IMG/VR virus record: IMGVR_UViG_3300025668_000745
Location: 20,644 to 84,643 of that record
From: a virus
DNA length: 64,000 bases
Direction: 5' to 3' (one strand)
The notes under the pieces are model-generated. The model saw nothing but the letters and a program-made list of their open reading frames with translations, was not told where the DNA came from and made no database searches. The position numbers were made by a program, and so were the translations under genes. This document shows, piece after piece, positions 24,012 through 59,827 of this stretch (position 1 is the first letter of the stretch; each line of letters begins with the position of its first letter).

Positions 24012-25094
24012 ATGTATAGATACGAAGACATCAAAGAAGTACACTTAGAAATTACGCAAAAGTGTCAAGCGGCCTGTCCTATGTGCGATCGTAACATGAA
24101 TGGCGGAGATGATAATCCTCATATTACAAATGCAGAACTTAGTTTAGAAGATGCAAAAAGAATGTTTAGTCCTGCTTTTATAAAGCAATTAAATGTTATG
24201 TATATGTGCGGCAACTTAGGAGATCCTATTGTTGCTAAAGATACGCTTGAAGTATTCAAATATTTCCGCGAACATAACGATAAGATATGGTTGAGCATGA
24301 ATACTAATGCTGGAGCCAAGAGTGCTGAATGGTGGACAGAACTTGCAGGAGTTATTGGTCGCAAGGGAGCAGTAATTTTTAGTGTAGACGGTTTAAAGGA
24401 TACAAATCATTTATATCGACAGAACGTTGTTTGGAATAATGTTGAACGTAACATGCGAGCATTTATTAATGCTGGAGGCAGAGCCCGTTGGGACTTCTTA
24501 ATTTTTGCACACAATGAACATCAAGTAGATGAAGCAGAAGCACTTGCTACTCAGTGGGGATGTGAAAAGTTTATCAAGAAAAAATCAGGTAGATTTATTA
24601 CAAGTGATATTAAACCTAAAACATCTCATCAAGCAATAAATCGTAAAGGGGCTGAAACACAAAACTTAGCACAGCCTAAAGATGAAAAGAATAAAAACAT
24701 AGCACTACTAAAACAAAAAGAAATTGAAAAGTCTTATGGTAGTATGAAAGAGTATTTAGATAAGTGCAGTATTACTTGTAAAGTTGCAAACCAAGGAAGT
24801 ATTTTTGTAACAGCAGAAGGACTTTTAATGCCGTGTTGTTGGACTGCTGGACGTATGTACAAATGGTGGCATGCAGATCCCCGTGTAGAACAGGTATGGG
24901 ATCATATAGATAATGCTGGCGGAAAACAAGGCATAAGTATTATAGACAATGACATTAAACACGTGGTTAATGGAAAATTAATAGATAGTATCACTGCAAG
25001 TTGGCAAAAAAATAGTATTGCTGACGGAAAACTTGGCGTTTGCGCTCAAAAATGCGGTAGTGAATTTGACCCGTATAAGGAGCAATTTGTATGA
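24012..25094 (+). CDS. Radical SAM protein with C-terminal SPASM/twitch domain
   Basis: CQAACPMC; CGNLGDP; FSVDG; C-terminal C..SIFVTAEG..PCCW..CAQKC. Confidence 0.9.
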   Translation: MYRYEDIKEVHLEITQKCQAACPMCDRNMNGGDDNPHITNAELSLEDAKRMFSPAFIKQLNVMYMCGNLGDPIVAKDTLEVFKYFREHNDKIWLSMNTNAGAKSAEWWTELAGVIGRKGAVIFSVDGLKDTNHLYRQNVVWNNVERNMRAFINAGGRARWDFLIFAHNEHQVDEAEALATQWGCEKFIKKKSGRFITSDIKPKTSHQAINRKGAETQNLAQPKDEKNKNIALLKQKEIEKSYGSMKEYLDKCSITCKVANQGSIFVTAEGLLMPCCWTAGRMYKWWHADPRVEQVWDHIDNAGGKQGISIIDNDIKHVVNGKLIDSITASWQKNSIADGKLGVCAQKCGSEFDPYKEQFV

Positions 25095-25807
25095 TATACG
25101 TAGGCGGCGACAGCTATGCATATGGATCAGAATTATTAGATATATCAAATCGTTTTGGTGATATTGTATCAGATGCTATGGGAACAACAAATCAAAACGA
25201 TGCAATAGGCGGCGCAAGTAATCAAAGAATTTACCGTAAATTTTTTGAAGCGTTTGATCCTAATAAATTTTCACATGTAATTTTAGGATGGACTGGCCTA
25301 AACAGATTTGAACATTATTCTGTCTTTGATCAAGATTATGACGGTTATAGAAGAATAACTGCACATCGATTACTTCCTTCTAACAAACATGAAGATTACA
25401 TAGATGAAAAACTTAGAAAAAGAATCGCAAAATTGCGAGATGATGTAAAGGTATCTAAAGAAAATAAAGTATTATTGCAGTACATGGCTAATGTACGTAC
25501 TGACAGAGTTATACATGCTGAAATTTTAAATATGATACTGCAAGTACAAAGGATGTGTAAATATACTGACACAAAATTATGCATGTTTTTTGGAGTACAG
25601 AATAATATCATAAAATTCAATGAATTAATAACAGATCATTTAATGTACAATAGTGTAGACTGGAATGATACATGGCTTTATCAACCAGATTATTCTTTAC
25701 AGGAATGTATGAATGATTTAAAATTACCAATAGGCCCAGGGAAACACTTTTTAGAAGAAGGCCATCAAGTTGCTGCTGACAAAATATTGGAGCATTTTAG
25801 TGTCTGA
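25091..25807 (+). CDS. SGNH hydrolase-like protein
   Basis: IYVGGDSYAYG, GGASNQRI, GPGKHFLEEGH. Confidence 0.65.
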   Translation: MIYVGGDSYAYGSELLDISNRFGDIVSDAMGTTNQNDAIGGASNQRIYRKFFEAFDPNKFSHVILGWTGLNRFEHYSVFDQDYDGYRRITAHRLLPSNKHEDYIDEKLRKRIAKLRDDVKVSKENKVLLQYMANVRTDRVIHAEILNMILQVQRMCKYTDTKLCMFFGVQNNIIKFNELITDHLMYNSVDWNDTWLYQPDYSLQECMNDLKLPIGPGKHFLEEGHQVAADKILEHFSV

Positions 25808-26435
25808 TAAATGTTTTCAACTTTCAATCTCAACGTATTGTCAAGCTAAATGTCGTAGTTGCTTACGTACCAATAGCGAAACAGGTGAGCCGGAAGATTG
25901 GCTTACGCCTACACATATGAGCGTAGAAGCAGTACAAAATTTAGTATCTGGCGATTATTTTAAAAAGAACAAACTGGGATATTTACTTCTTTGCGGAGAA
26001 TTAGGTGATCCAATGATGCATCCTAATATAGATAAAATTTTAGATATTACTCTTGCTGTTGTTCCTCGAGTAGAACTTTCGACAAACGGCGGCCTGCGTC
26101 AACCAGAATGGTATGCAAAGACAGCGCAAAAATATGGAAGTCGTATTCATATTAAATGGGCAATAGACGGCACTGACCATGAGACAAATTGGAAATATAG
26201 AGAAGGTGTTGACTATTATCGAGCAATGGATAATATGAAAGCATGGATTGAAAACGGTGGTAACGGTGATTGGCATTATTTAATTTTTGAGTGGAACTGG
26301 AAACAAGTAAAAACAGCTAAACAAATAGCTAAAGATATAGGGATTGAAATACTATTTAAAATAAACAACAGGCCGTTTGGGTTAATTGATCCACTTCATA
26401 AACGTAAAGTAATGGAGGAATTGACCAATGGCTAA
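25800..26435 (+). CDS. Radical SAM core only (no auxiliary domain)
   Basis: CQAKCRSC, CGELGDP, STNGG, WAIDG. GTG start at 25800 after SD GGAG; ends right after the barrel. Confidence 0.85.
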   Translation: MSDKCFQLSISTYCQAKCRSCLRTNSETGEPEDWLTPTHMSVEAVQNLVSGDYFKKNKLGYLLLCGELGDPMMHPNIDKILDITLAVVPRVELSTNGGLRQPEWYAKTAQKYGSRIHIKWAIDGTDHETNWKYREGVDYYRAMDNMKAWIENGGNGDWHYLIFEWNWKQVKTAKQIAKDIGIEILFKINNRPFGLIDPLHKRKVMEELTNG

Positions 26436-26820
26436 ACAGCAAAAGATTATGTGTATGTTTCATGATGGCGCTCGAAGTGAATACGATATAACTGTTGACG
26501 GTAGAGTGTGGCCGTGTTGTAAATTTGTAAATGTAATAACAAAGATCGAAGCCGGATTGCAAAAAAAAGGTGCTCTTGACGGAGACGACTATTTTTTTAA
26601 ATTACAAAAAGATGACCCTAATTGGAATAGTTTAGAACATCATTCATTAGACGAAATATTAGATCATGATTATTTTTCTACATATGTAAACAATGAAGGA
26701 TGGGAAAGTGGAAACACCAGCGTATTGTGTAAAAAACGATGTACGGCAAATATGCACCAAGACGGAACTTATACATATGTAGCAGATACAAGTAACAAAA
26801 TACATAAGAGGATAAAATAA
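26428..26820 (+). CDS. Stand-alone SPASM/twitch Fe-S domain protein
   Basis: C..ITVDGRVWPCC..NSL..SLDEIL..CKKRC matches the C-termini of 24012 and 34882; has its own SD GGAGG. Confidence 0.75.
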   Translation: MAKQQKIMCMFHDGARSEYDITVDGRVWPCCKFVNVITKIEAGLQKKGALDGDDYFFKLQKDDPNWNSLEHHSLDEILDHDYFSTYVNNEGWESGNTSVLCKKRCTANMHQDGTYTYVADTSNKIHKRIK

Positions 26821-26821
26821 A

Positions 26822-27571
26822 ATGATATATGTAGGCGGGGACAGTTATACATACGGAATTGAATTAAATAATCCTCTGAAAGGTCGATATTCTTTTTTGA
26901 TGCAACAAAAATTAAAAATGTCTGTAGTAAATGATTCTTGGGGCGGAGCAAGTAATGACAGGATAGCCAGAAAATTTTTAGAGTTTATGAGCGGTCATAA
27001 AGTAAAACCTGACTTGGTGTTTATTATGTGGGCTCCTATTACAAGATCAGAGCAGTATGCTCCTGAGGAGGATATGTGGGAGGAAAGAGACGGATTTAGA
27101 CAAGTAAGATCGCCTGATATTTTTTTACCTGCCAAAGGTAAGCCGACAAAAAAACAACTACACTGGCGCCGATCTCTTAGTCAGTTAAGTGCTACGCAAA
27201 AATGGTGGCTTAATATATTTGACCAAAAAGGAGCAATTGATAGTTATATTAGAAATATAATGATAGTTCAAACTGTTTGTCGTGCAGGAAATATACCGTT
27301 TATTATGACTAATTGTAATTCTTCAATGACACTCAAACAACTTGATGATTTTGTAAGTCGTAATAGAAAAGTAGAAAACTACACACAACAACGAGTAAAT
27401 CTCATTGATAGTAGTAACTGGTTATTTGATAAAACATGGTCTTTTGCTGAATGGGCAAAAGATAACGAATATCCAATAGGTCCACAACATCATCCGTTAG
27501 AGGAAGCACATATAAACTTTGCTAATATATTAACAGACAAAGTTAAGGAGAGATTAAATGCCTCCGATTAA
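26822..27571 (+). CDS. SGNH hydrolase-like protein (paralog of 25091)
   Basis: IYVGGDSYTYG, GGASNDRI, GPQHHPLEEAH. Confidence 0.65.
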   Translation: MIYVGGDSYTYGIELNNPLKGRYSFLMQQKLKMSVVNDSWGGASNDRIARKFLEFMSGHKVKPDLVFIMWAPITRSEQYAPEEDMWEERDGFRQVRSPDIFLPAKGKPTKKQLHWRRSLSQLSATQKWWLNIFDQKGAIDSYIRNIMIVQTVCRAGNIPFIMTNCNSSMTLKQLDDFVSRNRKVENYTQQRVNLIDSSNWLFDKTWSFAEWAKDNEYPIGPQHHPLEEAHINFANILTDKVKERLNASD

Positions 27572-28772
27572 ATGCTTCTTTGCAAAAAATGCAATTAATT
27601 ACAAGCCCAATGATAGAATAACTGCGTGTCCCAGAGGTCACGGATCTTTGGCTAAAATTAGTGACTCGGTAAAACCAAGTGATTTTTTAAATAACGAAGG
27701 ATTTAGAAATCTTAGGAAAACTTTACAAGATGGTGAATGGGATACATCGCATTGTGATACTTGTATGGAAAGAGAACAACGAAATATCACAAGTATGCGT
27801 CAAAACATTAACTCTGAATTTAATCCTAACACTAAAATTAATGCAAACGGCAAAGTGCGTTATAGAGAATTAAAATTTATAGAGCTTAGATTCAGTAATA
27901 CTTGTAACTTATGCTGTTTGCATTGTGGCCCCGATTACAGCAGTCAATGGGCATCACTTATAAAAAATAATCCCTTACAAAAAGATGACGTTGCTCATAA
28001 TATTAGAGGATGGGTTAATCCGAGTAAAAATACAAATTGGACAAGTAAGCAAGTAAGAGACTTTGTAGAAGACTTAAATAGAAACTTTCCAAATGTTGAA
28101 AGATTTGATATTGCCGGCGGCGAGCCATTGTATCAAAAACAATTTTGGCTATTTTTAGATTTAATAAAAGACCATCCTAACATAAAACGTATGACTATTA
28201 GTATTACTTCTAACTTTAATGTTGACATTAATTATAAAGATTTTGCTAAAAAACTTAATAAATTTAAATGTGCAAATGTGCGAATAAGTTTAGATGCTGG
28301 AAAAAACTTGTACGATTATTTTAGAGGCGGCAGCTGGGAAAAAGTAGAAGACAATATAAAACAGTTTAACAAAACCAGAAGGAATACACAATTAGAGGTT
28401 ACAAATACAATCGGAGTTCATCAAATTTTAGATCTTGAGGATGTAATTGTAAGTATGTTAGAACTTCCGGTTGACAAGTTACATCATAGTATTATACAAT
28501 ATCCTGACTATTTAAGTCCGCACGTATTTGAATCTAATAATCAAAGAGTCATTGATGAAATTGATAGGGCTAAAGCAGCAATTAATTGTTATAAAAGTGA
28601 TATAAAATACGTTAGCGCTCATAGAATGATTAAATCACTTGAAAAGGAGTATAGTAACTCAAAGTATAAATCTACTTTACTAAAAAGTTTTCAATACTAT
28701 ACTAATAAAATGGATAAAATTAAAAATACAAATTTTGAATCAGTGTTTGGATATAAAATAGATGAACTCTAA
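27558..28772 (+). CDS. N-terminal twitch-domain radical SAM protein
   Basis: N-terminal C..C..CDTC precedes ELRFSNTCNLCCLHC; AGGEP; ISLD. Confidence 0.88.
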   Translation: MPPIKCFFAKNAINYKPNDRITACPRGHGSLAKISDSVKPSDFLNNEGFRNLRKTLQDGEWDTSHCDTCMEREQRNITSMRQNINSEFNPNTKINANGKVRYRELKFIELRFSNTCNLCCLHCGPDYSSQWASLIKNNPLQKDDVAHNIRGWVNPSKNTNWTSKQVRDFVEDLNRNFPNVERFDIAGGEPLYQKQFWLFLDLIKDHPNIKRMTISITSNFNVDINYKDFAKKLNKFKCANVRISLDAGKNLYDYFRGGSWEKVEDNIKQFNKTRRNTQLEVTNTIGVHQILDLEDVIVSMLELPVDKLHHSIIQYPDYLSPHVFESNNQRVIDEIDRAKAAINCYKSDIKYVSAHRMIKSLEKEYSNSKYKSTLLKSFQYYTNKMDKIKNTNFESVFGYKIDEL

Positions 28773-29856
28773 CTATTGTGTCCTTCCTTTTGTTCATAGT
28801 TGTACAAATGTAGGCGGCAGAAATAAACCTTGCTGTAGATTTTCTGACCAAAGTTATAACGATCAAGTTAGTCCGTTAGATTATTTCAATGGAGATAAGA
28901 TAAATTTACTTAGAAATAAAATGCTTAACGGAGAAATAATAAAAGGATGCGACAAGTGTCACGCAGAAGAGTCGTTAGGTAAACAAAGTTATAGGCAACG
29001 GTCAAACAATCAATATAAAGAATATATTGACAAACAACCTACTTTAAAATTTATCGAAATTGGACTAAGCAATGCCTGTAATTTTGGATGTGTAACTTGT
29101 GATGCAGCATATAGCACAACTTGGTGGCAGGATATTGATGATGTAAATGCTATAGGCGCTAATAAAGCAAAACCTAATCAAAAAGTTGTATACACAGATA
29201 GTAAGTTTAATGACTTTTCTAATATAGATAGAATAAAAATATTAGGCGGCGAACCATTTATGGAGCCGAGAAACTTAGAGTTTTTAAAAAAATGTAATTT
29301 AAAAAATATCGAATTAGAACTTGTTACAAATGGTAGCATTTTGCCAAACAATGAGTGGCAAGAAATATTGCAACAACTAAAATATGTAAACTTAGATATA
29401 AGTTTAGACGGCCATGGTGAAATTGCCGAGTATGTGCGTTATGGAACAAACTGGAAAAAATTAGAATCTAATATTAATTGGTGGAAACAGTGGTGGAGCA
29501 ATAATAACAATATCACTATAAAAAGTCATTTTGTAGTTCATGCTCTAAATGCATTTGATTTACATAATTATTTAGAATGGCAAAAAAAGTTTAAATGGAA
29601 AACTACGTTTGATATACTACAAATGCCAGAATATTTAAATATTAAAATTCTGCCAACAGAAATGAAGAAAGAAATTTTAGAAAAGGTAGATATTAAGAAT
29701 GTTACAAACTATTTAACTAAGCATATGAACATTTTTGACAAGGACCAGTGTAGTCTGCTAACTAACTATGTTAGTGTTTTAAATAAAAAACGTAATCATG
29801 ACTTACAACAAATTAACAAACTAATGGATAGACTTAATGAAGCAACCAACAGATAG
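28762..29856 (+). CDS. N-terminal twitch-domain radical SAM protein
   Basis: YCVLPF..PCC..CDKC, then CNFGCVTC; GGEP; TNG; SLDG; YVRYG. Confidence 0.9.
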   Translation: MNSNYCVLPFVHSCTNVGGRNKPCCRFSDQSYNDQVSPLDYFNGDKINLLRNKMLNGEIIKGCDKCHAEESLGKQSYRQRSNNQYKEYIDKQPTLKFIEIGLSNACNFGCVTCDAAYSTTWWQDIDDVNAIGANKAKPNQKVVYTDSKFNDFSNIDRIKILGGEPFMEPRNLEFLKKCNLKNIELELVTNGSILPNNEWQEILQQLKYVNLDISLDGHGEIAEYVRYGTNWKKLESNINWWKQWWSNNNNITIKSHFVVHALNAFDLHNYLEWQKKFKWKTTFDILQMPEYLNIKILPTEMKKEILEKVDIKNVTNYLTKHMNIFDKDQCSLLTNYVSVLNKKRNHDLQQINKLMDRLNEATNR

Positions 29857-31081
29857 TAAAACTTTTTGTATTTTACCTTGGATACATGTGAATGGTAGTG
29901 TCGGCGGAGGTTATCGACCATGCTGTAATAGTGAAAGTTATTTTGATTTTAAAGACGACAACAACAGTATCAAACAAGCGTTTGAAAGCAACAGTATGGA
30001 CGAAATCCGCCAGTTTATGCAGCAGGAAAAAGAACATCCTGCATGTGAAGTTTGCTATTCAAGAGAGCGCAATAATGGATTAAGTTTTCGACATACATAC
30101 ACAGTTGATAAGTTTAAAGAATTTGTAGATCCGAATGCAGACGAAAAAATAAAATATTTAGACTTACGTTTTGATAACACTTGTAATCTTGCTTGTAGAA
30201 TGTGTGATCCAAGTAGTAGTAATCAGTTATATAGTAGTATCGAATGGTATAGGCAAGAGGATAAACCACTACCAGAACACTGGAAAGGGTTTACTAATTA
30301 TAAACAAAAAGATCAAACACAGATTAGTGCAAATCGTAAAGACTATGTAATAGAATTATTACCGGGTATAGAAGTTTTAAAAGTAACTGGCGGCGAACCT
30401 TTTATTAGCAAGGATTTTTTAGAAGTATTAGATCATGCAATTGAAAATGATTATGCAAAAAATATTAGATTGCTAATAACTACAAATGGCACTAAGTTTG
30501 TAAAGGCAGTTTTACAACGTCTTAAACATTTTAAGGGCGTTGACATGAATGTAAGTGTTGACGGAACCAGTCATGTGTATGACTATGTTAGATATCCTTT
30601 TACATGGAATAAATGGAATGATAGATTCTTAGAGTTTTTAAATTTTGCTGATGAAAACGAAATGTATAAAAACAAATACTTTCGAATTCGAACAAGTACA
30701 GTTGTTACAATGTACAATTGGTTGAATTGTCCAGAGCTATATACACATTTGAAATCTTATACTGAACAATTTCCGTGGTTAATTAATAAAAATTATATAC
30801 CACGTATAGATTTTAATTTAAATCTGCGCCCAAAAGATAGTGAAATGTCGGCCAAGTGGTTACCTAATAACATTTTAGATAAGGGTTTAGAGTTATGGCA
30901 GCACACTGATTGTAGACAATATAAAGAATTTGAAAAGTATGTAGTTAATGCAAAAAAACTAAGTTCAGACGATAAAAATCTTTATCGAGAAAAAATTAAA
31001 TACACTACTACGACATTAGACAAACAGCGGAAACAAACTTTTGCTGTATTAGATAGCGAGATTGTTAAATGGCTAAAATAG
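29837..31081 (+). CDS. N-terminal twitch-domain radical SAM protein
   Basis: FCILPW..PCC..CEVC; DLRFDNTCNLACRMC; GGEP; SVDG. Confidence 0.9.
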   Translation: MKQPTDSKTFCILPWIHVNGSVGGGYRPCCNSESYFDFKDDNNSIKQAFESNSMDEIRQFMQQEKEHPACEVCYSRERNNGLSFRHTYTVDKFKEFVDPNADEKIKYLDLRFDNTCNLACRMCDPSSSNQLYSSIEWYRQEDKPLPEHWKGFTNYKQKDQTQISANRKDYVIELLPGIEVLKVTGGEPFISKDFLEVLDHAIENDYAKNIRLLITTNGTKFVKAVLQRLKHFKGVDMNVSVDGTSHVYDYVRYPFTWNKWNDRFLEFLNFADENEMYKNKYFRIRTSTVVTMYNWLNCPELYTHLKSYTEQFPWLINKNYIPRIDFNLNLRPKDSEMSAKWLPNNILDKGLELWQHTDCRQYKEFEKYVVNAKKLSSDDKNLYREKIKYTTTTLDKQRKQTFAVLDSEIVKWLK

Positions 31082-32472
31082 ATAAAAAAGAAGCAGAGCG
31101 TTTAGAAAGTTTAGTACCAAATAAAAAGTTTTGTCCTGCTCCCTTTATGCATACATATATAAATTCAAATAATAGAGGATATAAACTTTGCTGTATGAGT
31201 CATATTGTTGGTCGTTGGGATACTGAACAAAGTCTTAAAGAACAACACGAAGAATTTTGGACTGGTGAAACTATGCAAAGTATTCGCCAAGATTTTCTTG
31301 ATGGCAAAATGCCAGAATCGTGTGAGTGGTGGTGCGGTCGTTGGGAAAAAGAAGGTATATATCATAAGAGTGATAGATTAGATTTTATAAAACGCTACGA
31401 ATTAGAATTAAAAGCAGGATTTACAGAAATAAATTGGGACATAACTCATGGTACTCTTGAATTCCAGAAGCCAGTTGATATTGATTTACGACCAAGTAAA
31501 ATGTGTAATTTAAAATGTCGTAGCTGTAATAGTCTTTGGTCCGATAAGATTGAACAAGAAGTACTTGCTAATCCAGAAATACAAGGATGGAGCCATTGGG
31601 ACATGGTAACACAAAGCCCTAATGCTATGCGTAAAGCAAAACAGATTGATTACTCAGATCCTAAGTTTGATGTTGTTAGTAATTTAGACTTTTCAAATGT
31701 ATTTCGTTTAAAAATGAGCGGAGGGGAAACGTTAGTTGATCCAAGAGTTTATAATATTATGAAAAAACTTGTTGATAGTGGCGAAGCAAAGAATGTACGT
31801 CTTCATCAAATTACAAACTGTACCAGCCTTCCAAGCAGAATATACGATTTACTGGCACAGTTCAAAGAAGTTAGTTTCAATATTAGTGTAGATGGCGTAA
31901 AAGAAACAGATGAATTTTTACGTGACGGGACCAGATGGGATCGAAAACAAAAAGTATTTGATAAAATCTTTACATTACCTAATTTAAAATGGGCTGGCAT
32001 AATGCATGTCTTCCAACCTGTTAGCGCATTTCAAGTAAAGCGTAATGTAGAATGGTTTTTAGAAGGATACAGAAAATATACAAAACAACATAACGGTGTT
32101 ACTTTTAATCCTATTGTTGATCCTTGGTATCTAAGTGTAAGTTGGTTAGATGAAGATCATAAAGAGTACATAAGACAGCAAGTAAAAGAATGTATAACAG
32201 AATTTAATATGTGTAAACAAGAACAACAATGGTTTGATCTGTTACATAGTGAATTAGATAAGACACAAACTGACGAGCGTCGAAAAAGATATGCAAATGA
32301 TTATGTGCGAGCAGAGTTAGCATTGGATAAAATAAGAAATACAAGTTCTCTTACTATAGAGCCTATGCTACAAAGATATTTTGATAGATACGATCCAAAC
32401 AATGTTACACACGGTGACAAAACAGGAAGACCAGGAGCCCACTTTGATGGAAAACCAAAACCAACAGTCTAA
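31069..32472 (+). CDS. N-terminal twitch-domain radical SAM protein
   Basis: FCPAPF..LCC..CEWWC; CNLKCRSC; GGET; SVDG. Confidence 0.9.
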   Translation: MAKIDKKEAERLESLVPNKKFCPAPFMHTYINSNNRGYKLCCMSHIVGRWDTEQSLKEQHEEFWTGETMQSIRQDFLDGKMPESCEWWCGRWEKEGIYHKSDRLDFIKRYELELKAGFTEINWDITHGTLEFQKPVDIDLRPSKMCNLKCRSCNSLWSDKIEQEVLANPEIQGWSHWDMVTQSPNAMRKAKQIDYSDPKFDVVSNLDFSNVFRLKMSGGETLVDPRVYNIMKKLVDSGEAKNVRLHQITNCTSLPSRIYDLLAQFKEVSFNISVDGVKETDEFLRDGTRWDRKQKVFDKIFTLPNLKWAGIMHVFQPVSAFQVKRNVEWFLEGYRKYTKQHNGVTFNPIVDPWYLSVSWLDEDHKEYIRQQVKECITEFNMCKQEQQWFDLLHSELDKTQTDERRKRYANDYVRAELALDKIRNTSSLTIEPMLQRYFDRYDPNNVTHGDKTGRPGAHFDGKPKPTV

Positions 32473-39830: not shown

Positions 39831-39859
39831 TTGACTTTTGCAAACAAAGAATGTAATAT
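39831..39859 (+). promoter_or_regulatory. Sigma70-type promoter, probably giving a leaderless mRNA
   Basis: TTGACT, 17 bp, TAATAT; the ATG at 39866 is 6 nt after the -10 element; no SD. Confidence 0.55.
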
Positions 39860-39865
39860 ATTAAT

Positions 39866-40984
39866 ATGAGCGAAGATTTAAAATGGTCAAATTATGACTT
39901 TACTAAAATACCTTTTGACGACATTGTCTCTGTGGGGCAACGTACTCTGCTGTATCGTGATATATTTACTGTATCATGGTTACTTGGACGTTTCTGCAAC
40001 TACAAGTGTTCCTACTGTTGGCCCTATGCCCGAAGTGACCGTAAAGATCACAGACCTACCGAGCTCTGCTTGCGAACAGTGGATGAAATTAAACGTCAAG
40101 CCAGAGACAACGGCTTCAATTCTTTCCACTTCTCCTTGTCAGGAGGAGAGCCTACTTTCCATCCTGGATACTTGGACATACTAAAGCACTTAGCTGACGA
40201 TGTAGATAATACTAACTATACAAGTGTACACATGACATCAAACTGTAGTCGCAACATGCGTTGGTTTGAACAGTATGTAGAAGCAGTTAAACCATTTCAT
40301 AGAGCAAGCATTACAGCAAGCCTGCACACAGAACACTTAAACACAAAGGAGAAGATGCAGGACTTTGCAGATAAACTAATCCTGTGTCAAGAACACGATG
40401 TACAAGTTACAATTAATATGGTCATGGTGCCGGACTGGTTTGAACGTGATTGGGAAAATGCACTGTTCTTTCACGAACAAGGTATCAACGTTACTCTTAA
40501 ACCACAATCAGACCCTACTGCTTCTAAAGTTGTTGACGGATACAAACCGGAAGACCTAAAACGTTTACATAACGGTATGCCGCAACGTGCATATACAGAA
40601 AGCAAACGTAAGTGGGAAGGTAGACCAAAACCTGCCTTTCAAATTCCACAAGGAGCAGACGGGAAACTTGATGCAAGTGTGCCTTGGCATTTTCAAGTAG
40701 AGTTTAAAGACTCAACAGGTAAAAAATGGTTCATGGATCAAGCAGAAAGATTTAATGCATTTAATTTTAATAAGTTTGAAGGATGGCGATGTAATGCAGG
40801 GTATCAAGGAATTATTATACGTGAACCGGACGGTTCAGTAAAGCGTAGTTATAGCTGTCATGATACGCCTCTTGGTAACATAGAAACAGGATTTAAGTTA
40901 TTTGACAAACCTATGCCATGTATAACTAAATCCTGTGTAAGTAGTGCAGATAGTAAAATACCTAAGACTAAAATTATTTCTTAA
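39866..40984 (+). CDS. Radical SAM protein with C-terminal Cys cluster
   Basis: SWLLGRFCNYKCSYCWP; SGGEP; C-terminal CNAG..SC..CITKSC. Confidence 0.9.
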   Translation: MSEDLKWSNYDFTKIPFDDIVSVGQRTLLYRDIFTVSWLLGRFCNYKCSYCWPYARSDRKDHRPTELCLRTVDEIKRQARDNGFNSFHFSLSGGEPTFHPGYLDILKHLADDVDNTNYTSVHMTSNCSRNMRWFEQYVEAVKPFHRASITASLHTEHLNTKEKMQDFADKLILCQEHDVQVTINMVMVPDWFERDWENALFFHEQGINVTLKPQSDPTASKVVDGYKPEDLKRLHNGMPQRAYTESKRKWEGRPKPAFQIPQGADGKLDASVPWHFQVEFKDSTGKKWFMDQAERFNAFNFNKFEGWRCNAGYQGIIIREPDGSVKRSYSCHDTPLGNIETGFKLFDKPMPCITKSCVSSADSKIPKTKIIS

Positions 40985-41606
40985 ATACTACCGGAATTTC
41001 TTCTTTTATACGTCTTTCAATCTTTACATTTTCTGTATGATGCTCACGTCTTTGTCTTGTGCTATCTTTAAATCCGATACCCATTAAAAGTATACTTGGA
41101 TTATCAAACCCTAAAATTTCTTCAACTTCTGATTTATCGTAACATGCACAACACCCTGTTTGATAACCTAACATTGTAGCAATAACATTTAAATAGCCAG
41201 CAGCAATACCTACAGCCATTTCTCTATCACGTCTTAACATGTTGTTATCTGATTCGTCATTATTTTTAAACTTTTTGTTATATTGTGCAGACATATCATT
41301 TGCTTCAAATGCAACAAGTAAGTTTGCAAGTGTTTGTGGATTTGTACATTCTACTCTATCTCCTGTTTCAGGATCAGCATATCCTAATCCTAATGAATTG
41401 GCATGTACTTGTTCTATAATATTTCTGTCTGTAATAAAGTGGGCTTTGTAAAACGCAAAGTTTTGTTTGCTCGGACAGTTAGTAACAGCGTGTACTAAAA
41501 CATCAATATCCTCTTCTGGAATACTTTTACTAAGATCCCAATTTCGTTGTGTATGTTGGCTTTTGATTACTGATTTTTTAATCTCGTTGCGAAAGTCTAA
41601 TTCCAT
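40974..41606 (-). CDS. Nitroreductase-family flavoprotein
   Basis: SQHTQRNWD..IPEEDID.L..A..CPSKQN; GIAAGYL..A..LGYQTG; LMGIG; SD AAGGAG. Confidence 0.75.
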   Translation of the reverse strand: MELDFRNEIKKSVIKSQHTQRNWDLSKSIPEEDIDVLVHAVTNCPSKQNFAFYKAHFITDRNIIEQVHANSLGLGYADPETGDRVECTNPQTLANLLVAFEANDMSAQYNKKFKNNDESDNNMLRRDREMAVGIAAGYLNVIATMLGYQTGCCACYDKSEVEEILGFDNPSILLMGIGFKDSTRQRREHHTENVKIERRIKEEIPVVFKK

Positions 41607-41634
41607 AATGAATACTCCTTGTACTATTATTTAT
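41604..41634 (-). promoter_or_regulatory. Late promoter ATAAATA plus imperfect RBS/AUG-occluding hairpin
   Basis: Minus strand reads ATAAATAATAGTAC-AAGGA-GTATTCATTATG: 10-bp stem with one G-U pair and one bulge. Confidence 0.55.
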
Positions 41635-41690
41635 TCAAATATGTATTATAACTAAACCGATATGCATAATTACTTATAAAGGAAGCAAAA

Positions 41691-42443: not shown

Positions 42444-42444
42444 T

Positions 42445-43152
42445 ATGCGTTCTGAAAGCCAAATCAACTTATTAAAATCACATCATTCAGATCCGTTTTC
42501 ATTATCTAATTTCCTTACATCGCAAGAGGTTGAGGATCTATTAGATTACTATTTTAATAATCAAGACAATGTTATTAAAAAAACAACAGGACCGAGTGTA
42601 CTAAAAATAAAAGATAACTTATTAGATAATATAATAAGCAGACTAAAATTACAAATAGGTGACTTTGATATAAGGTATGCACATTTCTTTGATGTAACCG
42701 GTCCGCATGTAATTCACAATGATGACGAATTTGATTATCCAGAATCGTATAAAGCATTTACAATACCGCTTAAAATATATGGTAATAGTGATGATGTAAA
42801 ATTAGTTATATATGATCAATATTACTACGGAGGCCCTGCTAAATTTTTTAATAATCAAGACACAAGTACTTGGAATGTGCATTATAATCCACCGCTTACT
42901 GATTATACTAATGTTGAAAATACAAATAACAGTGGTATATCAAAAACTGAAAAGGAAGAATATCTTACACACTTGGAAGATAAATGGTTGGAAGGGTTAA
43001 GCATCAAAAGTATGTTAGATTGGAAAATACAAAATGTTTTATGTTTTGACAGTTTACAATTACATTCGTCTACAGATTTTAATGCTAAAGGCATTGAACG
43101 AAAAATAGGATTAAGTATATTTACAGTTTTATCTGATCAAGCAAAAGACTAA
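42445..43152 (+). CDS. Fe(II)/2OG dioxygenase-like protein
   Basis: PHVIHND, FTIPL, FDSLQLHSS..K.GLSIF. Confidence 0.65.
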   Translation: MRSESQINLLKSHHSDPFSLSNFLTSQEVEDLLDYYFNNQDNVIKKTTGPSVLKIKDNLLDNIISRLKLQIGDFDIRYAHFFDVTGPHVIHNDDEFDYPESYKAFTIPLKIYGNSDDVKLVIYDQYYYGGPAKFFNNQDTSTWNVHYNPPLTDYTNVENTNNSGISKTEKEEYLTHLEDKWLEGLSIKSMLDWKIQNVLCFDSLQLHSSTDFNAKGIERKIGLSIFTVLSDQAKD

Positions 43153-44332
43153 CATCTAATTTTTTATTTTTGTAGTCGTTTTCTTTTATTAAGAATTTTT
43201 CTATATCGTTTGATGTATAAGATCCTGTTCCTATAAGACTCCTTAAACTTTTAAGCCAAATACATACATTATTCTTACATGCTTCTGCATGTTCGCCTTT
43301 AGAATTTAATACTATTTGTATTGCTTCGTCGACATATTTTCTAAATTCAATAGGTAAATTTGCTGGACTAAGAACTTTGGGAGTAGTCACCCAGTTATTA
43401 ATAAATCCAAATGGCACATCGACTTCAGTTAAATGATCGTAAACATATTGTATATATAATGGCAAGTGTTTAATACTAAACACATTCGGAGTCATTGCTA
43501 ATATTATATAACTTACTTTTTGGTTAATAAAAAAATTAAAATTCTTATCAAAGACATCCCAGTCAAGATGAAATCTAATATTTTCTGCTACACTACCCAT
43601 AGCTTCATTAGATAATCCAAATGACCATAGCCAATTTGTTCTATCGTTTTTAATTAGTTTTTCAATCTTATGTAATAGTTTGTCACTTGCGCCGCAGTTA
43701 GTAACTATGTGTATTCTAAACTTTCTATCTGCAAGTTTTTCTTCTAATGTATGCAAAAATTTAAAAAATTCTACACTTGCTAATGGCTCGCCCCCTAAGA
43801 TACGCAAATCTAAATATTTAGATCTATCTTTAGTTACAACGTCTAACCAATCTAAAAGAACATCAATATCTTTATTATTATGTTTTAAAAACTTTGCTTC
43901 TCCTCGTTCTTCAGCAATAATACTACTAAACGCTGAACTGCAATATAAACAACTTTGAGTACATGTATTATCAAATGTAAGACCAACAACTCTTAAATAA
44001 TCTAATTCAGGATTGGCTTTAATTTTACTATGTATTCTTGTATTACTTTTTACTTTGCGTTTAGATGTTCCTGAGTTCTTTTCAGCCATCCAGCATTCAT
44101 TACAAGCTGAGTGTTTTTCTTCATTTAAAAAGGCTAATTTTCGATCATGGTGTTCGGAGTTATTAGTAAAAAAGTCCAAAGTTAAATCTTTAGGAAACGA
44201 AACATCTTTGGAATAACAGCACCAAGATATAGATCGATCTCTAAGATTGATATCTACCTCTTCCCAAGGAAGTGAACAAAACATATCGTACTTGTGTATT
44301 GATTTTTGAGCAATATAGTCAGAGCTGGTCAT
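43121..44332 (-). CDS. N-terminal twitch-domain radical SAM protein (inverted orientation)
   Basis: FCSLPW..WCC..CNECW; FDNTCTQSCLYC; GGEP. Start at 44332 or 44338. Confidence 0.85.
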   Translation of the reverse strand: MTSSDYIAQKSIHKYDMFCSLPWEEVDINLRDRSISWCCYSKDVSFPKDLTLDFFTNNSEHHDRKLAFLNEEKHSACNECWMAEKNSGTSKRKVKSNTRIHSKIKANPELDYLRVVGLTFDNTCTQSCLYCSSAFSSIIAEERGEAKFLKHNNKDIDVLLDWLDVVTKDRSKYLDLRILGGEPLASVEFFKFLHTLEEKLADRKFRIHIVTNCGASDKLLHKIEKLIKNDRTNWLWSFGLSNEAMGSVAENIRFHLDWDVFDKNFNFFINQKVSYIILAMTPNVFSIKHLPLYIQYVYDHLTEVDVPFGFINNWVTTPKVLSPANLPIEFRKYVDEAIQIVLNSKGEHAEACKNNVCIWLKSLRSLIGTGSYTSNDIEKFLIKENDYKNKKLDVSLLLDQIKL

Positions 44333-44366
44333 AAACATATTTAGTACACCATAAATACCCTATATG
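44330..44366. promoter_or_regulatory. Back-to-back divergent TAAATA late promoters, each 5-6 nt before an ATG
   Basis: Minus: CTAAATA-TGTTT-ATG(44332). Plus: ATAAATA-CCCTAT-ATG(44364). No SD on either side. Confidence 0.6.
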
Positions 44367-45197
44367 CACGAAACTGAATTAAGAAACATTATAAAGAATC
44401 CTTGGGTACAATGTCCACAAGTTAATAGCGTACAACACTTATTGAAGTCTGTCGAAGTTATTAATTTTGTAAGAGGCAGTGGTGAAGCATCTGCTCGGTT
44501 GGATTATTTAGAAACTTTATACAGAAAATGGGTAAGTGATATAATAGATTTACGTGATTTTAAGTATTGTTATTTTGTTAACGGTGTTACTGATGCAATT
44601 AATCAATGGGTAGCAACCGAAACAAGGACCTGGCAATATTTAAAAGGCGATTACGAATATGCTAAAATGATCGGCGGCGACGGATATTGTGTAGATGACA
44701 TTAATCCTGAACAGTTGTTATATATAAGCAACCCGGAATGTTCTACTGGCGACTTCATTAAACTTAAAGATATACCTAATCCTATAATATTAGATTGTGC
44801 ATATATTGGCAGTACCTTAAAACAACAAATGTCAGTGCCTAATACAACAGAACAAATTTGGTTTAGTTTTTCAAAAGGTTGGGGATTAGTTGGTCAACGT
44901 GCAGGGTTAGTTTTTACAAAACATCCTCATAAAAGTTTACATGTAATGAAACAAGTTGAAGCATGGAATTATACAAGTGTAGAAACAGCAATAGCTATTG
45001 TAGAAAACTATGATATAGACACTGTAGCAAGCGCATACAAGCCCGTACAGCAGCAGTTGTGTGAGAAGTATAACTTAGAGCCCAGTGATTGTTTTTTCAT
45101 TGCTAAGAGTACTGATAAGCGTTTTAAGATACGGCGTAGAAAAGAAGACATTGCTCGATTAGATTTGAGTTCTTTAATGGAGCACAGTAATGCATAA
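44364..45197 (+). CDS. PLP-dependent fold-type I enzyme (aminotransferase class I/II-like, compact)
   Basis: GVTDAI, YISNP..TG, ILDCAY and SFSKGWGLVGQRAG (PLP-lysine motif). Confidence 0.8.
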   Translation: MHETELRNIIKNPWVQCPQVNSVQHLLKSVEVINFVRGSGEASARLDYLETLYRKWVSDIIDLRDFKYCYFVNGVTDAINQWVATETRTWQYLKGDYEYAKMIGGDGYCVDDINPEQLLYISNPECSTGDFIKLKDIPNPIILDCAYIGSTLKQQMSVPNTTEQIWFSFSKGWGLVGQRAGLVFTKHPHKSLHVMKQVEAWNYTSVETAIAIVENYDIDTVASAYKPVQQQLCEKYNLEPSDCFFIAKSTDKRFKIRRRKEDIARLDLSSLMEHSNA

Positions 45198-45828
45198 AAT
45201 TGTAGGGTTGTCGTTTAGTTATGCTGATAACAGTATGCAAAATAGAGGAATGTCTTTATTAGGAAAAGTTATTCCCTTTCATAAAACTTATACTTTAGCA
45301 GATTTTGATATACCCTTAGTAAAAACAAATAAACCAGACGGCGCAAGTCCTCAAGGTGTTAAGGATATGGTAGCAGCATTAGAAGAAGCAGATGCGATAG
45401 TTTTTGGAATATCAGAAATGATAGCTTATCCGTGCGCTTCATTTAAAAATTTTTGTGAATGGTTAGTTATAAATATTAACAACAATGATGATTTGACTAA
45501 AAGTTATTGTATCAGTCATAAGCCGTTAGTAACAACTACATTTACTCCAGGACCACATGCTGGAGATAGACATTGGGAAGTTTCCAACCAACTACTTTTC
45601 CAATTGAATTGTAACATTGAAAAAAATTATGTTTTTAGAGACGCTTGGGAAAACTTGTTGCCTAATAACATAGATTATATACAACAAGAAGCAAAAGAAA
45701 TGTTAGAGTTACTTTCAAAAAAATATAATGATAGCGGCATTGTTGTGCATGATAGAGTGCGCACAATGGGGAAATGGATGAATCAATACGAAGAATGGGA
45801 TAAAGAATGGACTTCTTCAGATCTGTAA
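45190..45828 (+). CDS. Flavodoxin-fold NAD(P)H-dependent FMN reductase-like protein
   Basis: IVGLSFS; ADAIVFGISE..ASFKNFCEW resembles the ADxxVxxxPEY..LKNxxDW motif. Confidence 0.65.
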   Translation: MHKIVGLSFSYADNSMQNRGMSLLGKVIPFHKTYTLADFDIPLVKTNKPDGASPQGVKDMVAALEEADAIVFGISEMIAYPCASFKNFCEWLVININNNDDLTKSYCISHKPLVTTTFTPGPHAGDRHWEVSNQLLFQLNCNIEKNYVFRDAWENLLPNNIDYIQQEAKEMLELLSKKYNDSGIVVHDRVRTMGKWMNQYEEWDKEWTSSDL

Positions 45829-46403
45829 AATTTAAAACTAATATAGACTTTTTCTATGATTGTGCAGAATATATTTCTGAAGATTCTACCTTTAACATAG
45901 ACGATAGTGTTTATATGTGTTGGACTGACGATAATAAAAAATTTATTCCAATACACAATTTTATAGATAAACTAAAAAATAAATTAAATTGTGAAATTAG
46001 TAGAAGTTGTTATACAGTTCAAAGAAGCAAAAAATCTAATTTGCCAATTCATATAGATAAAGATGATTCTATTATAGACAGATCTATTCATGGGAAAATA
46101 TATAGTTTAATTATACCTATTAAAGGTAGTGGCGTTACTAAGTTTTATAATTTGCACTCTAAAGATAACGGCCCTAACAGTATGGATATACACGAAAGAT
46201 ACAATCTATATATAGGAAATGATAATATCGAACAACAAGTGCAGATGCATAGTGCTGTAACAATTGAGCAACCTACAATTTTAAATATTAGCCAACCTCA
46301 TAGTGTTACTGTAGTTACTGCTCCGAGAATTACCTACCATTTAAAATTATTACAAGTTTCAGAACCTATAGATAAAATAGCGGAGATATTAAGTGAAATA
46401 TAA
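45807..46403 (+). CDS. Fe(II)/2OG oxygenase / cupin-like protein
   Basis: LPIHID, LIIPI, ILNISQPHSV..PRIT. Confidence 0.65.
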   Translation: MDFFRSVKFKTNIDFFYDCAEYISEDSTFNIDDSVYMCWTDDNKKFIPIHNFIDKLKNKLNCEISRSCYTVQRSKKSNLPIHIDKDDSIIDRSIHGKIYSLIIPIKGSGVTKFYNLHSKDNGPNSMDIHERYNLYIGNDNIEQQVQMHSAVTIEQPTILNISQPHSVTVVTAPRITYHLKLLQVSEPIDKIAEILSEI

Positions 46404-47901
46404 CGCATTATTGTTAGCAGCAGTTCCAAGACAAAAATCATATTATGCCTCTAAAAACTTTGGTATACATCGTGCTGCTACAGAATTTCGAAATAATAAT
46501 ATAGATACTCAAGTTGTTCATTATTTTAATAGATTTAGTGATAATGAATTAGACAAAATGATAGATAAGTTTTGTAATGACCAAACATCAGTTGTTGGGT
46601 TCAATACAATGTTCTGGGAAAACTATGATCCTGTCGAAAAGCAGCATGTGTTAAAAAAAGCAAAATATATTTGTAATGTTATAAAACAAAAGTATCCCAA
46701 TACAAAACTTATTGCCGGCGGCCCCAGTTGTAGAATATTTTTAAAAGAAGAATTTAACAATTTGATAGATGCAATTTTTGAAGGATTCAGTGAAAACGAC
46801 TTTATTCCGTACATACAAAATAAAATAATTGTACCTTCTAAAACTTACTATAACATTGACGTATATAACAATATACACGGATCGTTTAATTTTACTAACA
46901 GCAATACAATATACCAAAAAAATGATTTTCTCATGCCGTCAGAAACTCCAACATTAGAAGTTGGACGAGGATGTATTTTTAAGTGTAAATTTTGTGCATT
47001 TGCACTTAATGGTAAGAAAAAGTTAGACTATATAAAAGATCCAAAAGTATTAGAAGAAGAATTATTGTATAATTATGAAAATTTTGGATTTACTAATTAC
47101 ATATTAAGTGACGATACATTTAATGATAGTACATATAAAATAGAATTATTACATAAAGTGTTTACTAATCTACCTTTTGATATAAAGTTTAGTTCTTATT
47201 TAAGATTAGATTTACTAAATGCACATCGAGAACAAATACCGTTATTAAAAGAGATGGGACTAATAGGTGCGTTTTTTGGTATAGAAAGTTTTGATAAGAA
47301 AGCCAGCAGCTTAATTGGAAAGGGTATGGATCCTGACATTGCAAAACAAATGTTATTAGATTTAAAAAATACTCACTGGGGCAATCGAATAAAAATTGGT
47401 GTTGGATTGATAACTGGATTACCGTATGAAACATACGAATCGCATGATCGAACTATGGAGTGGATTTTAGATGAAAGTAATACAGTTGACCAAGTTGTGC
47501 CTTTTCCGTTAGGTGTTACTAATCCTAATAATGCAAAACCGCAACCTTGGGAAAGTGAATTTCAAATTAATGCAGAAAAATATGGGTTCAGTTGGCCAAA
47601 CAATGATAGTATACGATGGCATAATAGTATTGGACCAGTAAAAACTTTAGACGAAGCTGAAAGACTATACGAACTTTATTCAGAATGTGTATCTAAAACA
47701 GCTCGATGGAAGCAAGGAGGATTTAATTTACTCAAAGCATATCCGTTAGTAAGTTCTCAAAAAAATGCACCAACCATAGATCAACTTCTTGATATGAATC
47801 GATATGCCTATACTAAGTACATTAAATTAATTGAACAACAGCCTGAAATAGAATTCAATTATGTAAATTCTTACAAAAAGGAAATTTTAAATGCTTTATA
47901 A
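46393..47901 (+). CDS. Class B-like (B12-binding domain) radical SAM protein
   Basis: N-terminal Rossmann-like region with KLIAGGP; EVGRGCIFKCKFC; DDTFN; FGIES; ITGLPYET; GTG start. Confidence 0.8.
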   Translation: MKYNALLLAAVPRQKSYYASKNFGIHRAATEFRNNNIDTQVVHYFNRFSDNELDKMIDKFCNDQTSVVGFNTMFWENYDPVEKQHVLKKAKYICNVIKQKYPNTKLIAGGPSCRIFLKEEFNNLIDAIFEGFSENDFIPYIQNKIIVPSKTYYNIDVYNNIHGSFNFTNSNTIYQKNDFLMPSETPTLEVGRGCIFKCKFCAFALNGKKKLDYIKDPKVLEEELLYNYENFGFTNYILSDDTFNDSTYKIELLHKVFTNLPFDIKFSSYLRLDLLNAHREQIPLLKEMGLIGAFFGIESFDKKASSLIGKGMDPDIAKQMLLDLKNTHWGNRIKIGVGLITGLPYETYESHDRTMEWILDESNTVDQVVPFPLGVTNPNNAKPQPWESEFQINAEKYGFSWPNNDSIRWHNSIGPVKTLDEAERLYELYSECVSKTARWKQGGFNLLKAYPLVSSQKNAPTIDQLLDMNRYAYTKYIKLIEQQPEIEFNYVNSYKKEILNAL

Positions 47902-59817: not shown

Positions 59818-59827
59818 AACCTTCTCC

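Follow-up and report, generated by a model that had tools for sequence, protein, structure and literature searches.

The phage loci that most resemble the one reported here are those of the Campylobacter phages CP220 and CPt10, which encode 11 and 12 radical S-adenosylmethionine (SAM) proteins, respectively, as well as an amidinotransferase and an interchangeable module of five genes, and for which a metabolic benefit has been proposed (Timms et al. 2010, PMC2853527). In the CP220 annotation the module comprises five radical SAM genes, the amidinotransferase gene and two nucleotide-diphospho-sugar-transferase-fold genes, and it adjoins baseplate genes. Among marine phages, a 183-kb T4-like Tara genome (TARA_ERS488813_N000010) for which 16 iron-sulphur (Fe-S) genes are listed carries 12 radical SAM genes, taken as belonging to Fe-S metabolism (Nishimura et al. 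2017, PMC5332604), and radical SAM cassettes are presented in a further study as the sole difference between two pelagimyophage host-recognition clusters (Zaragoza-Solas et al. 2020, PMC7029224). The present analysis concerns a 64,000-nucleotide stretch of viral DNA (IMG/VR record IMGVR_UViG_3300025668_000745, positions 20,644 to 84,643; referred to as the window, in which all positions are numbered from its first letter), where fifteen radical SAM genes are located between positions 24012 and 47901. This array belongs to a widespread phage system of uncharacterised function, among whose members it is unusually large. The core of the gene block is a hypervariable cassette array in which three genes (the anchors) are fixed across the phage clade, and the genes between and around these anchors come from a very large stock of paralogues, each of them old and conserved in its own right, which are gained, lost or replaced singly.

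With CP220 the window clade has in common a T4-type myovirus background and clustered (at least five), interchangeable radical SAM genes; the CP220 radical SAM genes resemble the groups designated B and C below, and its amidinotransferase is 28% identical (E 1.7e-27) to one encoded in related marine arrays. As to the other features of the CP220 module, an amidinotransferase gene is present in five sister loci, though not in the window, and the GT-A-like gene of the window (19985) is borderline. CP220 differs, moreover, in being without the majority of N-terminal-twitch enzymes (best match to the N_Twi profile at E 3.9e-6), in having no described three-anchor layout, whereas the window has 15 genes of which 11 are contiguous, and in having hosts of the low-oxygen gut, whereas the window phage derives from surface seawater. 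The Tara genome and the pelagimyophages are similar to the window in that their radical SAM genes reside in a hypervariable region bearing tail-fibre genes, but there the genes receive passing mention, without families, anchors, selection or substrate, and the nearest isolates of the window are PA5oct-like rather than HTVC008M. The family NF033640 (N_Twi_rSAM), which matches 8 of the 15 window genes over their full length, is elsewhere a catalogue family of which no assayed member was found in the literature, and here it forms a cassette pool instead of a single gene. The literature covered, to which subscription journals did not belong, yielded no paper on the anchors, the cassette pool, selection or substrate. 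What is new here is the three-anchor and cassette organization, the purifying selection, the link with sugar genes in sister phages and Bdellovibrionota, and a one-gene polymorphism in natural populations.

All open reading frames (ORFs) of at least 100 amino acids (aa) between positions 19426 and 52187 were considered (n = 35), each gene being designated by its first coordinate. A preliminary description of this DNA had noticed an intact CxxxCxxC motif in fifteen named ORFs, and the motif was recovered in exactly those 15 of the 35, as compared with a mean of 0.10 and a maximum of 2 ORFs in 500 residue shuffles. The PF04055 (Radical_SAM) profile matches all 15 at E ≤ 1.2e-4, with 13 exceeding its cut-off of 29.5 bits; concerning the remaining pair, 31069 (22.8 bits) clears the NCBIfam family N_Twi_rSAM at 234 bits, and 24012 (27.3 bits) aligns with 34882 and 25770, both of which are above the PF04055 cut-off. 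Eleven consecutive radical SAM genes, mostly overlapping or abutting, occupy positions 27558 to 40984, as had been described, with overlaps of 8-92 nucleotides (nt) and one gap of 35 nt. Because most of these genes overlap the next by 8-92 nt, the arrangement suggests that the run may constitute a single translationally coupled operon. The earlier gene starts required some revision, since several genes begin with TTG or GTG or start a few codons away from the positions first given. The gene previously placed at 25800 possesses the motif but encodes only a 221-aa core, the auxiliary-cluster domain being a separate ORF (26428-26820).

The division into four architectures that had been proposed for these proteins was retained, namely eight N-terminal-twitch enzymes, three enzymes with a C-terminal SPASM-like domain and GDP in place of GGEP, three with a C-terminal Cys cluster and one class-B-like enzyme. 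The first of these architectures corresponds to the full-length NF033640 matches, seven of which score 225.8-418 bits against a cut-off of 170. On the plus strand, it includes five successive cassette genes, 27558..28772 (225.8 bits), 28762..29856 (255.9 bits), 29837..31081 (257.8 bits), 31069..32472 (234.4 bits; PF04055 22.8 bits) and 32381..33706 (245.9 bits), followed at a distance by the second, central anchor, 36109..37515 (418 bits), and a cassette, 37508..38830 (373.2 bits), which has a 50% identical homologue in a Bdellovibrionota metagenome-assembled genome (MAG). The eighth member, 43121..44338 on the minus strand, scores 162.8 bits, 7 under the cut-off (PF04055 30.2 bits). In an alignment of all eight proteins, C11, C29, C92 and C95 are invariant (8/8) and correspond to an auxiliary cluster located N-terminal to the core, while C148, C152 and C155, corresponding to the radical SAM cluster, and G223-G224-E225 are invariant as well. 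This alignment was too diverged to be used for a genome pattern scan.

Group B consists of 24012, 25770 and 34882 (all on the plus strand, as are the remaining genes of the array unless otherwise indicated), in which a C-terminal PCC...CxxxC domain is present and GDP is found where GGEP is usual. The gene 24012..25094 (PF04055 27.3 bits) is the first conserved anchor, and 34882..36108 (PF04055 40.1 bits; weak SPASM match, E 0.01; 28% identity to 24012) is a cassette. The third enzyme is split into 25770..26435, the radical SAM core of 221 aa (PF04055 33.5 bits), which aligns with the N-terminal two thirds of 24012 and 34882, and 26428..26820, a separate auxiliary Fe-S (SPASM-like) ORF of 130 aa (weak SPASM match, E 0.009), which overlaps the former by 8 nt and aligns with the PCC...CxxxC tail of the group. 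Within group B the SPASM profile (PF13186) stays below its 21.5-bit cut-off (16.6 bits for 34882 and 16.7 bits for 26428), and the proteins contain only 5-6 C-terminal Cys residues as compared with the seven of the SPASM motif, the domain being here termed SPASM-like or twitch-like. Group C, with its C-terminal Cys cluster, includes the cassette 33678..34889 (PF04055 38.8 bits; 15 Cys residues, ten of them beyond residue 278), the cassette 38796..39830 (44.7 bits), which is present or absent in natural populations, and the third anchor, 39866..40984 (58.8 bits). Finally, the class-B-like protein encoded by 46393..47901 (PF04055 52.1 bits) has an N-terminal extension and no B12-binding Pfam match at E ≤ 0.01. 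Its top NCBIfam matches are all class-B families, with 60.5 bits against a cut-off of 600 for the PhpK family (residues 42-362) and 54.7 against 360, and a profile search of the PDB retrieved no solved relative.

None of the array genes attains the cut-off of any named NCBIfam equivalog. As regards housekeeping families, the top scores against the QueE, MoaA and NrdG profiles are 18.8-43.6 bits for cut-offs of 131-325, with maxima of 43.6 versus 284 bits for MoaA, 27.5 versus 131 for NrdG2 and 23.5 versus 260 for QueE, and the array genes are thus not members of these families. The high divergence of the array members was borne out by within-group pairwise identities of 22-33%. The view that the array serves distinct functions is also supported, gene dosage being excluded because the paralogues are only 22-33% identical, and we infer from these sequences that many distinct reactions would be catalysed.

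No member of the array appears to be a pseudogene, in agreement with the preliminary description. A pseudogene reading of the 25770/26428 pair was rejected, as the identical split with its 8-nt overlap was found in a sister locus (L085; 207 and 115 aa); because the same split recurs there, the pair represents a conserved two-gene form and not decay. Across 80 related loci, 610 of 628 homologues retain CxxxCxxC, the 18 motif-less homologues being short ORFs of 111-336 aa, several of them at locus ends.

A chimeric assembly was likewise considered and rejected, as independent marine assemblies rebuild the array. One 11,452-bp contig from a 2022 run belonging to a different study spans positions 25111-36567 with 83 differences, and a 7,984-bp contig from a 2019 run spans 25809-33789. 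Sampled words of 30000-39999 were present in 20 marine runs from 12 studies (2011-2022), with at least half of the words in 18 runs, and the source runs represent oxygenated surface seawater. Read-depth peaks at 24012-25345, 36018-37351 and 40020-40686 coincide with genes that are common to many relatives. These data also contain a one-gene deletion: contigs of two independent runs (X4 and X8) fuse position 38822 to 39797, thereby omitting 974 nt that represent almost exactly the radical SAM gene read from the ATG at 38823, with 5 nt shared at the joint. Run X4 additionally contains a contig bearing the gene, so that forms with and without it coexist. In the long contig of that run, 5 nt are missing at position 26812, near the end of ORF 26428-26820, which would alter the C-terminus in that population.

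The distribution of the array was determined by scanning IMG/VR with 36109, which gave 300 pattern matches, 299 of which encode a relative, and the array is therefore not unique to the window. Eighty loci, with 36109 relatives 83-99% identical, were retained with flanks of 10 kb on either side. Orthologues of at least 60% identity are found in many loci for only three window genes, these being 36109 (80/80 loci), 24012 (75/80) and 39866 (34/80, a count limited by the flanks; median identity 87%), while those of the other window radical SAM genes occur only in L001, a near-identical IMG/VR contig (97.7% over 21.4 kb), except for 37508 (two loci). At 60% identity, and with the window included, the 24012 cluster has 76 members in 76 loci, and the 643 genes of the 81 loci fall into 190 clusters. 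The number of radical SAM homologues within the flanks varies between 2 and 13 per locus, with a mode of 9-10. The three anchors are encountered in the same order in 27 loci representing 22 distinct gene orders, with 6-13 radical SAM genes from the first to the last anchor (median 9); the window, with 13, represents the maximum among these 27 loci, bearing in mind that the flanks would cut longer arrays. In pairs of loci with 80-95% identical anchors the cassettes are almost unshared (mean Jaccard index 0.00-0.05), and in L001 the 38796 gene is 89% identical while its neighbours are 99-100% identical. The five larger related contigs (165-257 kb, 46-72% complete) contain 8, 17, 19, 19 and 12 Radical_SAM matches, and the 15 genes of the window are thus a high but not an exceptional number.

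Ratios of nonsynonymous to synonymous substitution (dN/dS) were calculated with NG86 within the 60% clusters, each of which contributed no more than six pairs of 75-97% identity. The 37 clusters amenable to this calculation have a median of 0.083 and a maximum of 0.368, among anchors as among cassettes, with the values to be taken as rough since dS is often above 1 (saturated). Relaxed selection, on which the preliminary description would have faltered, was accordingly not observed, and each radical SAM type appears to be maintained by strong purifying selection.

Judged by its proteins, the window comes from a giant marine myovirus, as yet uncultured, within the wider T4-like assemblage. The assembly is a single contig of 84,643 bp with a completeness of approximately 24% (CheckV), for which the isolate phage collection contained no close DNA match. 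The closest isolates at protein level, with 35-50% identity, are PA5oct-like Pseudomonas jumbo phages, Sinorhizobium phage Phosso, Atu_ph07 and Salicola phage SCTP-2. An identity as pelagimyophage (HTVC008M) or cyanophage was dropped in view of these PA5oct-like nearest isolates. The T4 late-promoter word TATAAATA is strongly avoided, with 1 occurrence in the window versus 15.35 expected (standard deviation 3.69). Between 17000 and 36900, counts of promoter-like and terminator-like sites were not above those of shuffles, and all terminator-like sites (9/9) are on the minus strand. A sigma-70-like site (17376-17404, 11/12 matches) lies just 5' of the first gene of the block, and another, read by eye, is found inside the 35-nt gap ahead of anchor 39866. 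Elsewhere in the window, a minus-strand pair at 58495-60916 encodes two proteins, one DUF2201 metallopeptidase/VWA-like and the other a MoxR/CobS-like ATPase (phrog_1297), the latter 50% identical to its counterpart in PA5oct-like phages.

The function that we consider most likely for this array, a judgement in which confidence and doubt are evenly balanced, is the radical tailoring of a sugar-bearing substrate. Each enzyme would reductively cleave SAM at its CxxxCxxC-bound [4Fe-4S] site to generate a 5'-deoxyadenosyl radical, which would take a hydrogen atom from the enzyme's own site on the substrate, following which the auxiliary cluster, carried by the N-terminal twitch or the C-terminal Cys domain, would complete a distinct C-H functionalisation. 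Epimerisation, oxidation, dehydration, C-methylation and C-C bond formation are candidate outcomes, with electrons plausibly supplied by two flavodoxin-like flavin mononucleotide (FMN) reductases. The substrate may be a nucleoside diphosphate (NDP)-sugar or a finished glycan, which the GT-A-like protein, methyltransferases, SGNH proteins, aminotransferase-fold protein and iron/2-oxoglutarate (Fe/2OG) oxygenases of the block would also work upon. The product would be a strain-specific surface structure on the virion or the infected cell, the final form of which, a surface "serotype", would be fixed by the cassette content. This reading is suggested because NDP-sugar epimerase, DegT and amidinotransferase genes are present in sister arrays and GT2 genes neighbour the family in Bdellovibrionota, because of the genes that accompany the CP220 module, and because 19985 has an invariant DGD and a borderline GT2 match.

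The tailoring genes form one long same-strand block bounded by tail-fibre genes, with a giant ORF, tail-collar and fibre genes on its 5' side and a Mtd_N fibre gene of opposite strand on its 3' side. The giant ORF (2-10321, plus strand), of more than 3,439 aa and truncated by the window start, has CBM_5_12 carbohydrate-binding and FG-GAP matches and is probably a sugar-binding fibre or decoration protein of the virion. In the conserved head of the locus, 19985..21601 (+) encodes a tandem double domain, a candidate GT-A glycosyltransferase, arising from the internal duplication of a unit of approximately 270 aa with invariant D65, G66 and D67. Its relatives are composed of one, two or four units, corresponding to 306, ~540 and ~1,080 aa (for instance L036:2437-3357 and L013:1204-4449), and a PDB profile search with 19985 was blank. 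It is followed by 21585..22484 (+), a conserved protein present in 74/80 loci and having no PDB or Pfam match, for which Atlas neighbours that include Methyltransf_31 clusters provide a methyltransferase-like lead only. SGNH/DUF6071-like ORFs are located among the first radical SAM genes (22484-23158, 23379-24011, 25091-25807 and 26822-27571, all plus strand), with weak Lipase_GDSL_2/DUF6071 matches for 22484, 25091 and 26822; two further ORFs, including 23379 with its N-terminal G-x-S, are SGNH-like by eye.

Beyond the third anchor, a nitroreductase-family flavoprotein is encoded on the minus strand (40974..41606; PF00881 E 2.5e-8), followed by two plus-strand HxD...H proteins, 41691-42443 and 42445-43152. 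These are candidate Fe/2OG oxygenases, as judged by eye for 41691 and from the invariant H91, D93 and H207 of the 42445 family; neither has a Pfam match, and a PDB profile search with the latter family was blank. Next are a short form of an aminotransferase-fold, pyridoxal phosphate (PLP)-type protein (44364..45197, +; profile against PDB 3if2 E 2.7e-5; invariant S168 and K171) and an FMN reductase/flavodoxin-like protein, the possible electron donor (45190..45828, +; PF03358 E 3.8e-8), of which a second copy is encoded at 52686-53324 (+; E 2e-9). This second copy belongs to a downstream tailoring block (47891..54513, +) in which Pfam matches indicate a redoxin (47891), TauD dioxygenases (49136 and 51399), an Asp/Asn beta-hydroxylase-like protein (50807), the FMN reductase (52686) and a methyltransferase (53273), in addition to several unknown ORFs. 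Between 41691 and 52187 there are up to seven Fe/2OG-type oxygenases, three of them recognized by Pfam, one family by its invariant HxD...H and three by eye.

A fatty-acid desaturase gene (Pfam; 54496-55131, minus strand), together with the weak matches of 46393 to a B12/radical SAM lipid family and to glycerol dialkyl glycerol tetraether (GDGT) enzymes, may be taken to indicate auxiliary genes for remodelling of host membrane lipids or for a boost to host metabolism at low oxygen, as in the metabolic benefit proposed for CP220 (PMC2853527). We regard this as highly improbable, given that the scores concerned are far under their cut-offs, that hypervariable cassettes are unexpected for core metabolism and that the habitat is oxygenated surface seawater.

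The genes that accompany sister arrays provide further evidence concerning the substrate, although Pfam is blank for 9/10 of the commonest non-radical-SAM array proteins and for most further ones. In the five larger related records PF01370 is always present (5/5), and a 328-aa NDP-sugar epimerase/dehydratase (147 bits) lies inside the radical SAM region in three of them, as does a DegT-like aminotransferase (41-44 bits; 3/5). An alginate-lyase/C5-epimerase-like ORF is found in 5 loci and SDR-like proteins also occur inside sister arrays. A StrB1-like amidinotransferase is encoded within the arrays of 5 loci (PDB 1bwd, E 1.9e-25). As this enzyme is closest to StrB1 of streptomycin and as aminotransferase-fold, SDR-like and PP-loop proteins are present inside arrays, a diffusible aminocyclitol- or aminoglycoside-like compound, another secondary metabolite or a cofactor might instead be made or altered during infection, and a cyanophage trio of aminotransferase, amidinotransferase and radical SAM genes is taken as "antibiotic synthesis" in one paper (PMC12801897). 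Such a small-molecule pathway seems quite unlikely to us, however, since genes for scaffold formation, resistance or export were not seen, and the location among fibre genes with serotype-like cassette turnover suits a surface structure better; if the molecule were an NDP-sugar, this explanation would merge with sugar tailoring.

The commonest non-radical-SAM gene of the sister arrays encodes a PP-loop ATPase-like protein, of which 43 loci contain 62 ORFs in total; an invariant SGGxDS and four Cys residues characterise it, and its PDB resemblance to TtuA and GMP synthase is weak. This recalls nucleic-acid hypermodification, in which unusual bases on phage DNA or tRNA would evade host restriction, and to it may be added the weak viperin, MoaA and QueE matches of group C and the QueD-like gene that CP220 possesses 6 kb upstream of its module. 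Campylobacter phages have modified deoxyguanosine. Nevertheless, the window contains no PP-loop ORF, TGT/DpdA was found in 0/5 related records (all of which are fragments), the QueE, MoaA and NrdG scores are all far under their cut-offs, and known DNA-modification pathways are not known to involve as many as ten different radical SAM enzymes in a single genome, all of which makes this explanation very unlikely.

Outside the window, the N_Twi profile retrieves 33,110 representatives (50% identity clusters) at E ≤ 0.001, a number that falls to 7,522 at E ≤ 1e-30, the nearest ESM Atlas clusters being 88-100% viral, and none of 14 control genomes had a match above the cut-off. Some of the representatives (P0121-P0138 and P0149) are natural fusions, in which a single protein of 770-1,413 aa contains two or three N_Twi units and the profile matches 2-3 stretches. 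The only isolates that tblastn with 36109 detected, at ~21-23% identity, were Vibrio phages K566/K567 and Ralstonia phage RsoM2USA. K566 has four N_Twi genes within 7 kb, and RsoM2USA, a soil jumbo phage, has a lone N_Twi gene (L091, 6991-10999) flanked by three SGNH/DUF6071-like homologues (25091- and 26822-like); the annotated surroundings of the N_Twi genes in K566 and RsoM2USA are all "hypothetical". A pairing of N_Twi with SGNH/DUF6071-like genes is common to the window, RsoM2USA and the flank of a Pseudobdellovibrio array.

The family is multi-copy in MAGs of Bdellovibrionota, where 11, 5, 7 and 1 matches exceed its cut-off. On large contigs, a distance of no more than 3 kb separates N_Twi from GT2 genes at 3/4 loci of one MAG (G006) and 1/3 of another (G008), the chance of a GT2 gene being this near a given locus amounting to ~3% by our own rough estimate (12 GT2 matches in the 3.7 Mb of G006). 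At a further locus (L088), genes for a nucleotidyltransferase-kinase, a mannose-6-P-isomerase cupin and two SGNH proteins adjoin the array. A 56-kb contig of a Pseudobdellovibrionaceae MAG (G006:C23; GC fraction 0.43) bears the backbone of the phage locus, with the anchors at 60%, 46% and 67% (the last being 39866), 21585-like and 19985-like genes, three PP-loop genes, two 42445-like genes and one class-B-like gene, and its positions 30001-50000 (L096) contain approximately 12 radical SAM genes in 20 kb.

A role in protein maturation must also be weighed, according to which the radical SAM enzymes would modify phage structural proteins, either tail fibres or the giant flanking protein with its carbohydrate-binding module, by thioether or C-C cross-links, epimerisation or hydroxylation, with cassette diversity tracking fibre diversity. 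SPASM/twitch radical SAM enzymes of known function are mostly peptide or protein maturases, and the best solved relatives of the N_Twi profile, at E 3.2e-9 to 1.2e-5, are maturases of RiPPs (peptides synthesised by the ribosome and modified after translation), namely 8vpo (E 3.2e-9; presumably a cyclopropyl synthase, going by the title of the paper that holds the code), SkfB and CteB. The block is also flanked by fibre genes, a Gly-rich fibre-like ORF is found at the array edge in 6 loci, and the block includes the Asp/Asn beta-hydroxylase-like gene and the two TauD genes. Set against this, in N_Twi proteins the auxiliary domain is permuted to the N-terminus, and the other components of RiPP systems are missing: the RRE domain (PqqD-like, PF05402) is present in 0/5 records or genomes as compared with 4/14 controls, no peptidase or exporter was found, and the block has just four gaps of more than 30 nt, no small Cys-rich ORF and no precursor peptide gene, while no ORF of at least 25 aa in the window carries RGRR or two CH.S motifs. 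A RiPP reading is disfavoured because an RRE and small Cys-rich ORFs are lacking and the block leaves precursor genes no room. Since the family moreover accompanies GT2 and NDP-sugar genes in cells and sister phages, we consider protein maturation in general to be rather unlikely.

Sugar tailoring has precedents in the enzymes that modify sugars and nucleosides, such as BlsE, with a single radical SAM enzyme acting at one position on the sugar or nucleoside-sugar. BtrN and DesII are sugar-tailoring radical SAM enzymes that similarly edit a single position, and some members of this class have a twitch-type auxiliary cluster. The similarity of the array proteins to BlsE is, however, weak and generic (21.8-24.3 bits versus a cut-off of 400), and in enzymes of this type the auxiliary domain is C-terminal and the genes occur singly, not as arrays.

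Several observations weigh against the tailoring of sugars. The link with sugars is one of guilt by association, and PF01370, DegT and amidinotransferase genes are all absent from the window. Canonical glycan genes are not found in the phage records, all of which are fragments (GT2 0/3, GT1 0/3, Wzx flippase 0/2, NTP_transferase 0/5). The GT-A reading of 19985 is weak, as the Pfam GT2 match is at 23.2 bits for a cut-off of 23.3 and hhalign against Bdellovibrionota GT2 recovers the DxD stretch only (E 0.0036, probability 9%). Among solved radical SAM structures, the peptide maturases 8vpo, SkfB and CteB are closest in sequence, followed by lipid, nucleoside and nucleotide enzymes, and the Asp/Asn beta-hydroxylase-like protein and TauD dioxygenases of the block could act on proteins. 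The contig G006:C23 could be viral or mis-binned, although no phage structural gene was seen on it, and the saturation of dS mentioned above belongs to the same account.

In its most extended form, sugar tailoring leads to a proposal that we put forward tentatively and consider doubtful as a whole. It holds that an open-ended library of radical SAM enzymes, of at least 190 types at 60% identity in the 81 loci, is shuffled singly between the three anchors so as to write a combinatorial, strain-specific radical "edit code" on a surface glycan or on virion proteins. Such a code would be the enzymatic counterpart of O-antigen serotype variation, borne by a virus in oxygenated seawater, and would decide host range or escape from recognition.

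Radical SAM enzymes perform otherwise hard chemistry and most of their families are uncharacterised; N_Twi proves to be a large one, the members of which are found here as swappable cassettes, under strong purifying selection, in the host-recognition region of abundant ocean phages. The locus also raises the question of how oxygen-labile Fe-S enzymes and oxygen-dependent Fe/2OG oxygenases operate within one operon. Cultured phages with small arrays, namely Vibrio phage K566, Ralstonia phage RsoM2USA and Campylobacter phage CP220, make the question of function testable. If the substrate is a virion protein, the array would represent a new kind of viral post-translational maturation; if it is a glycan, phage-host surface diversity would gain a new layer, and the array would offer a wealth of new carbohydrate-editing enzymes.

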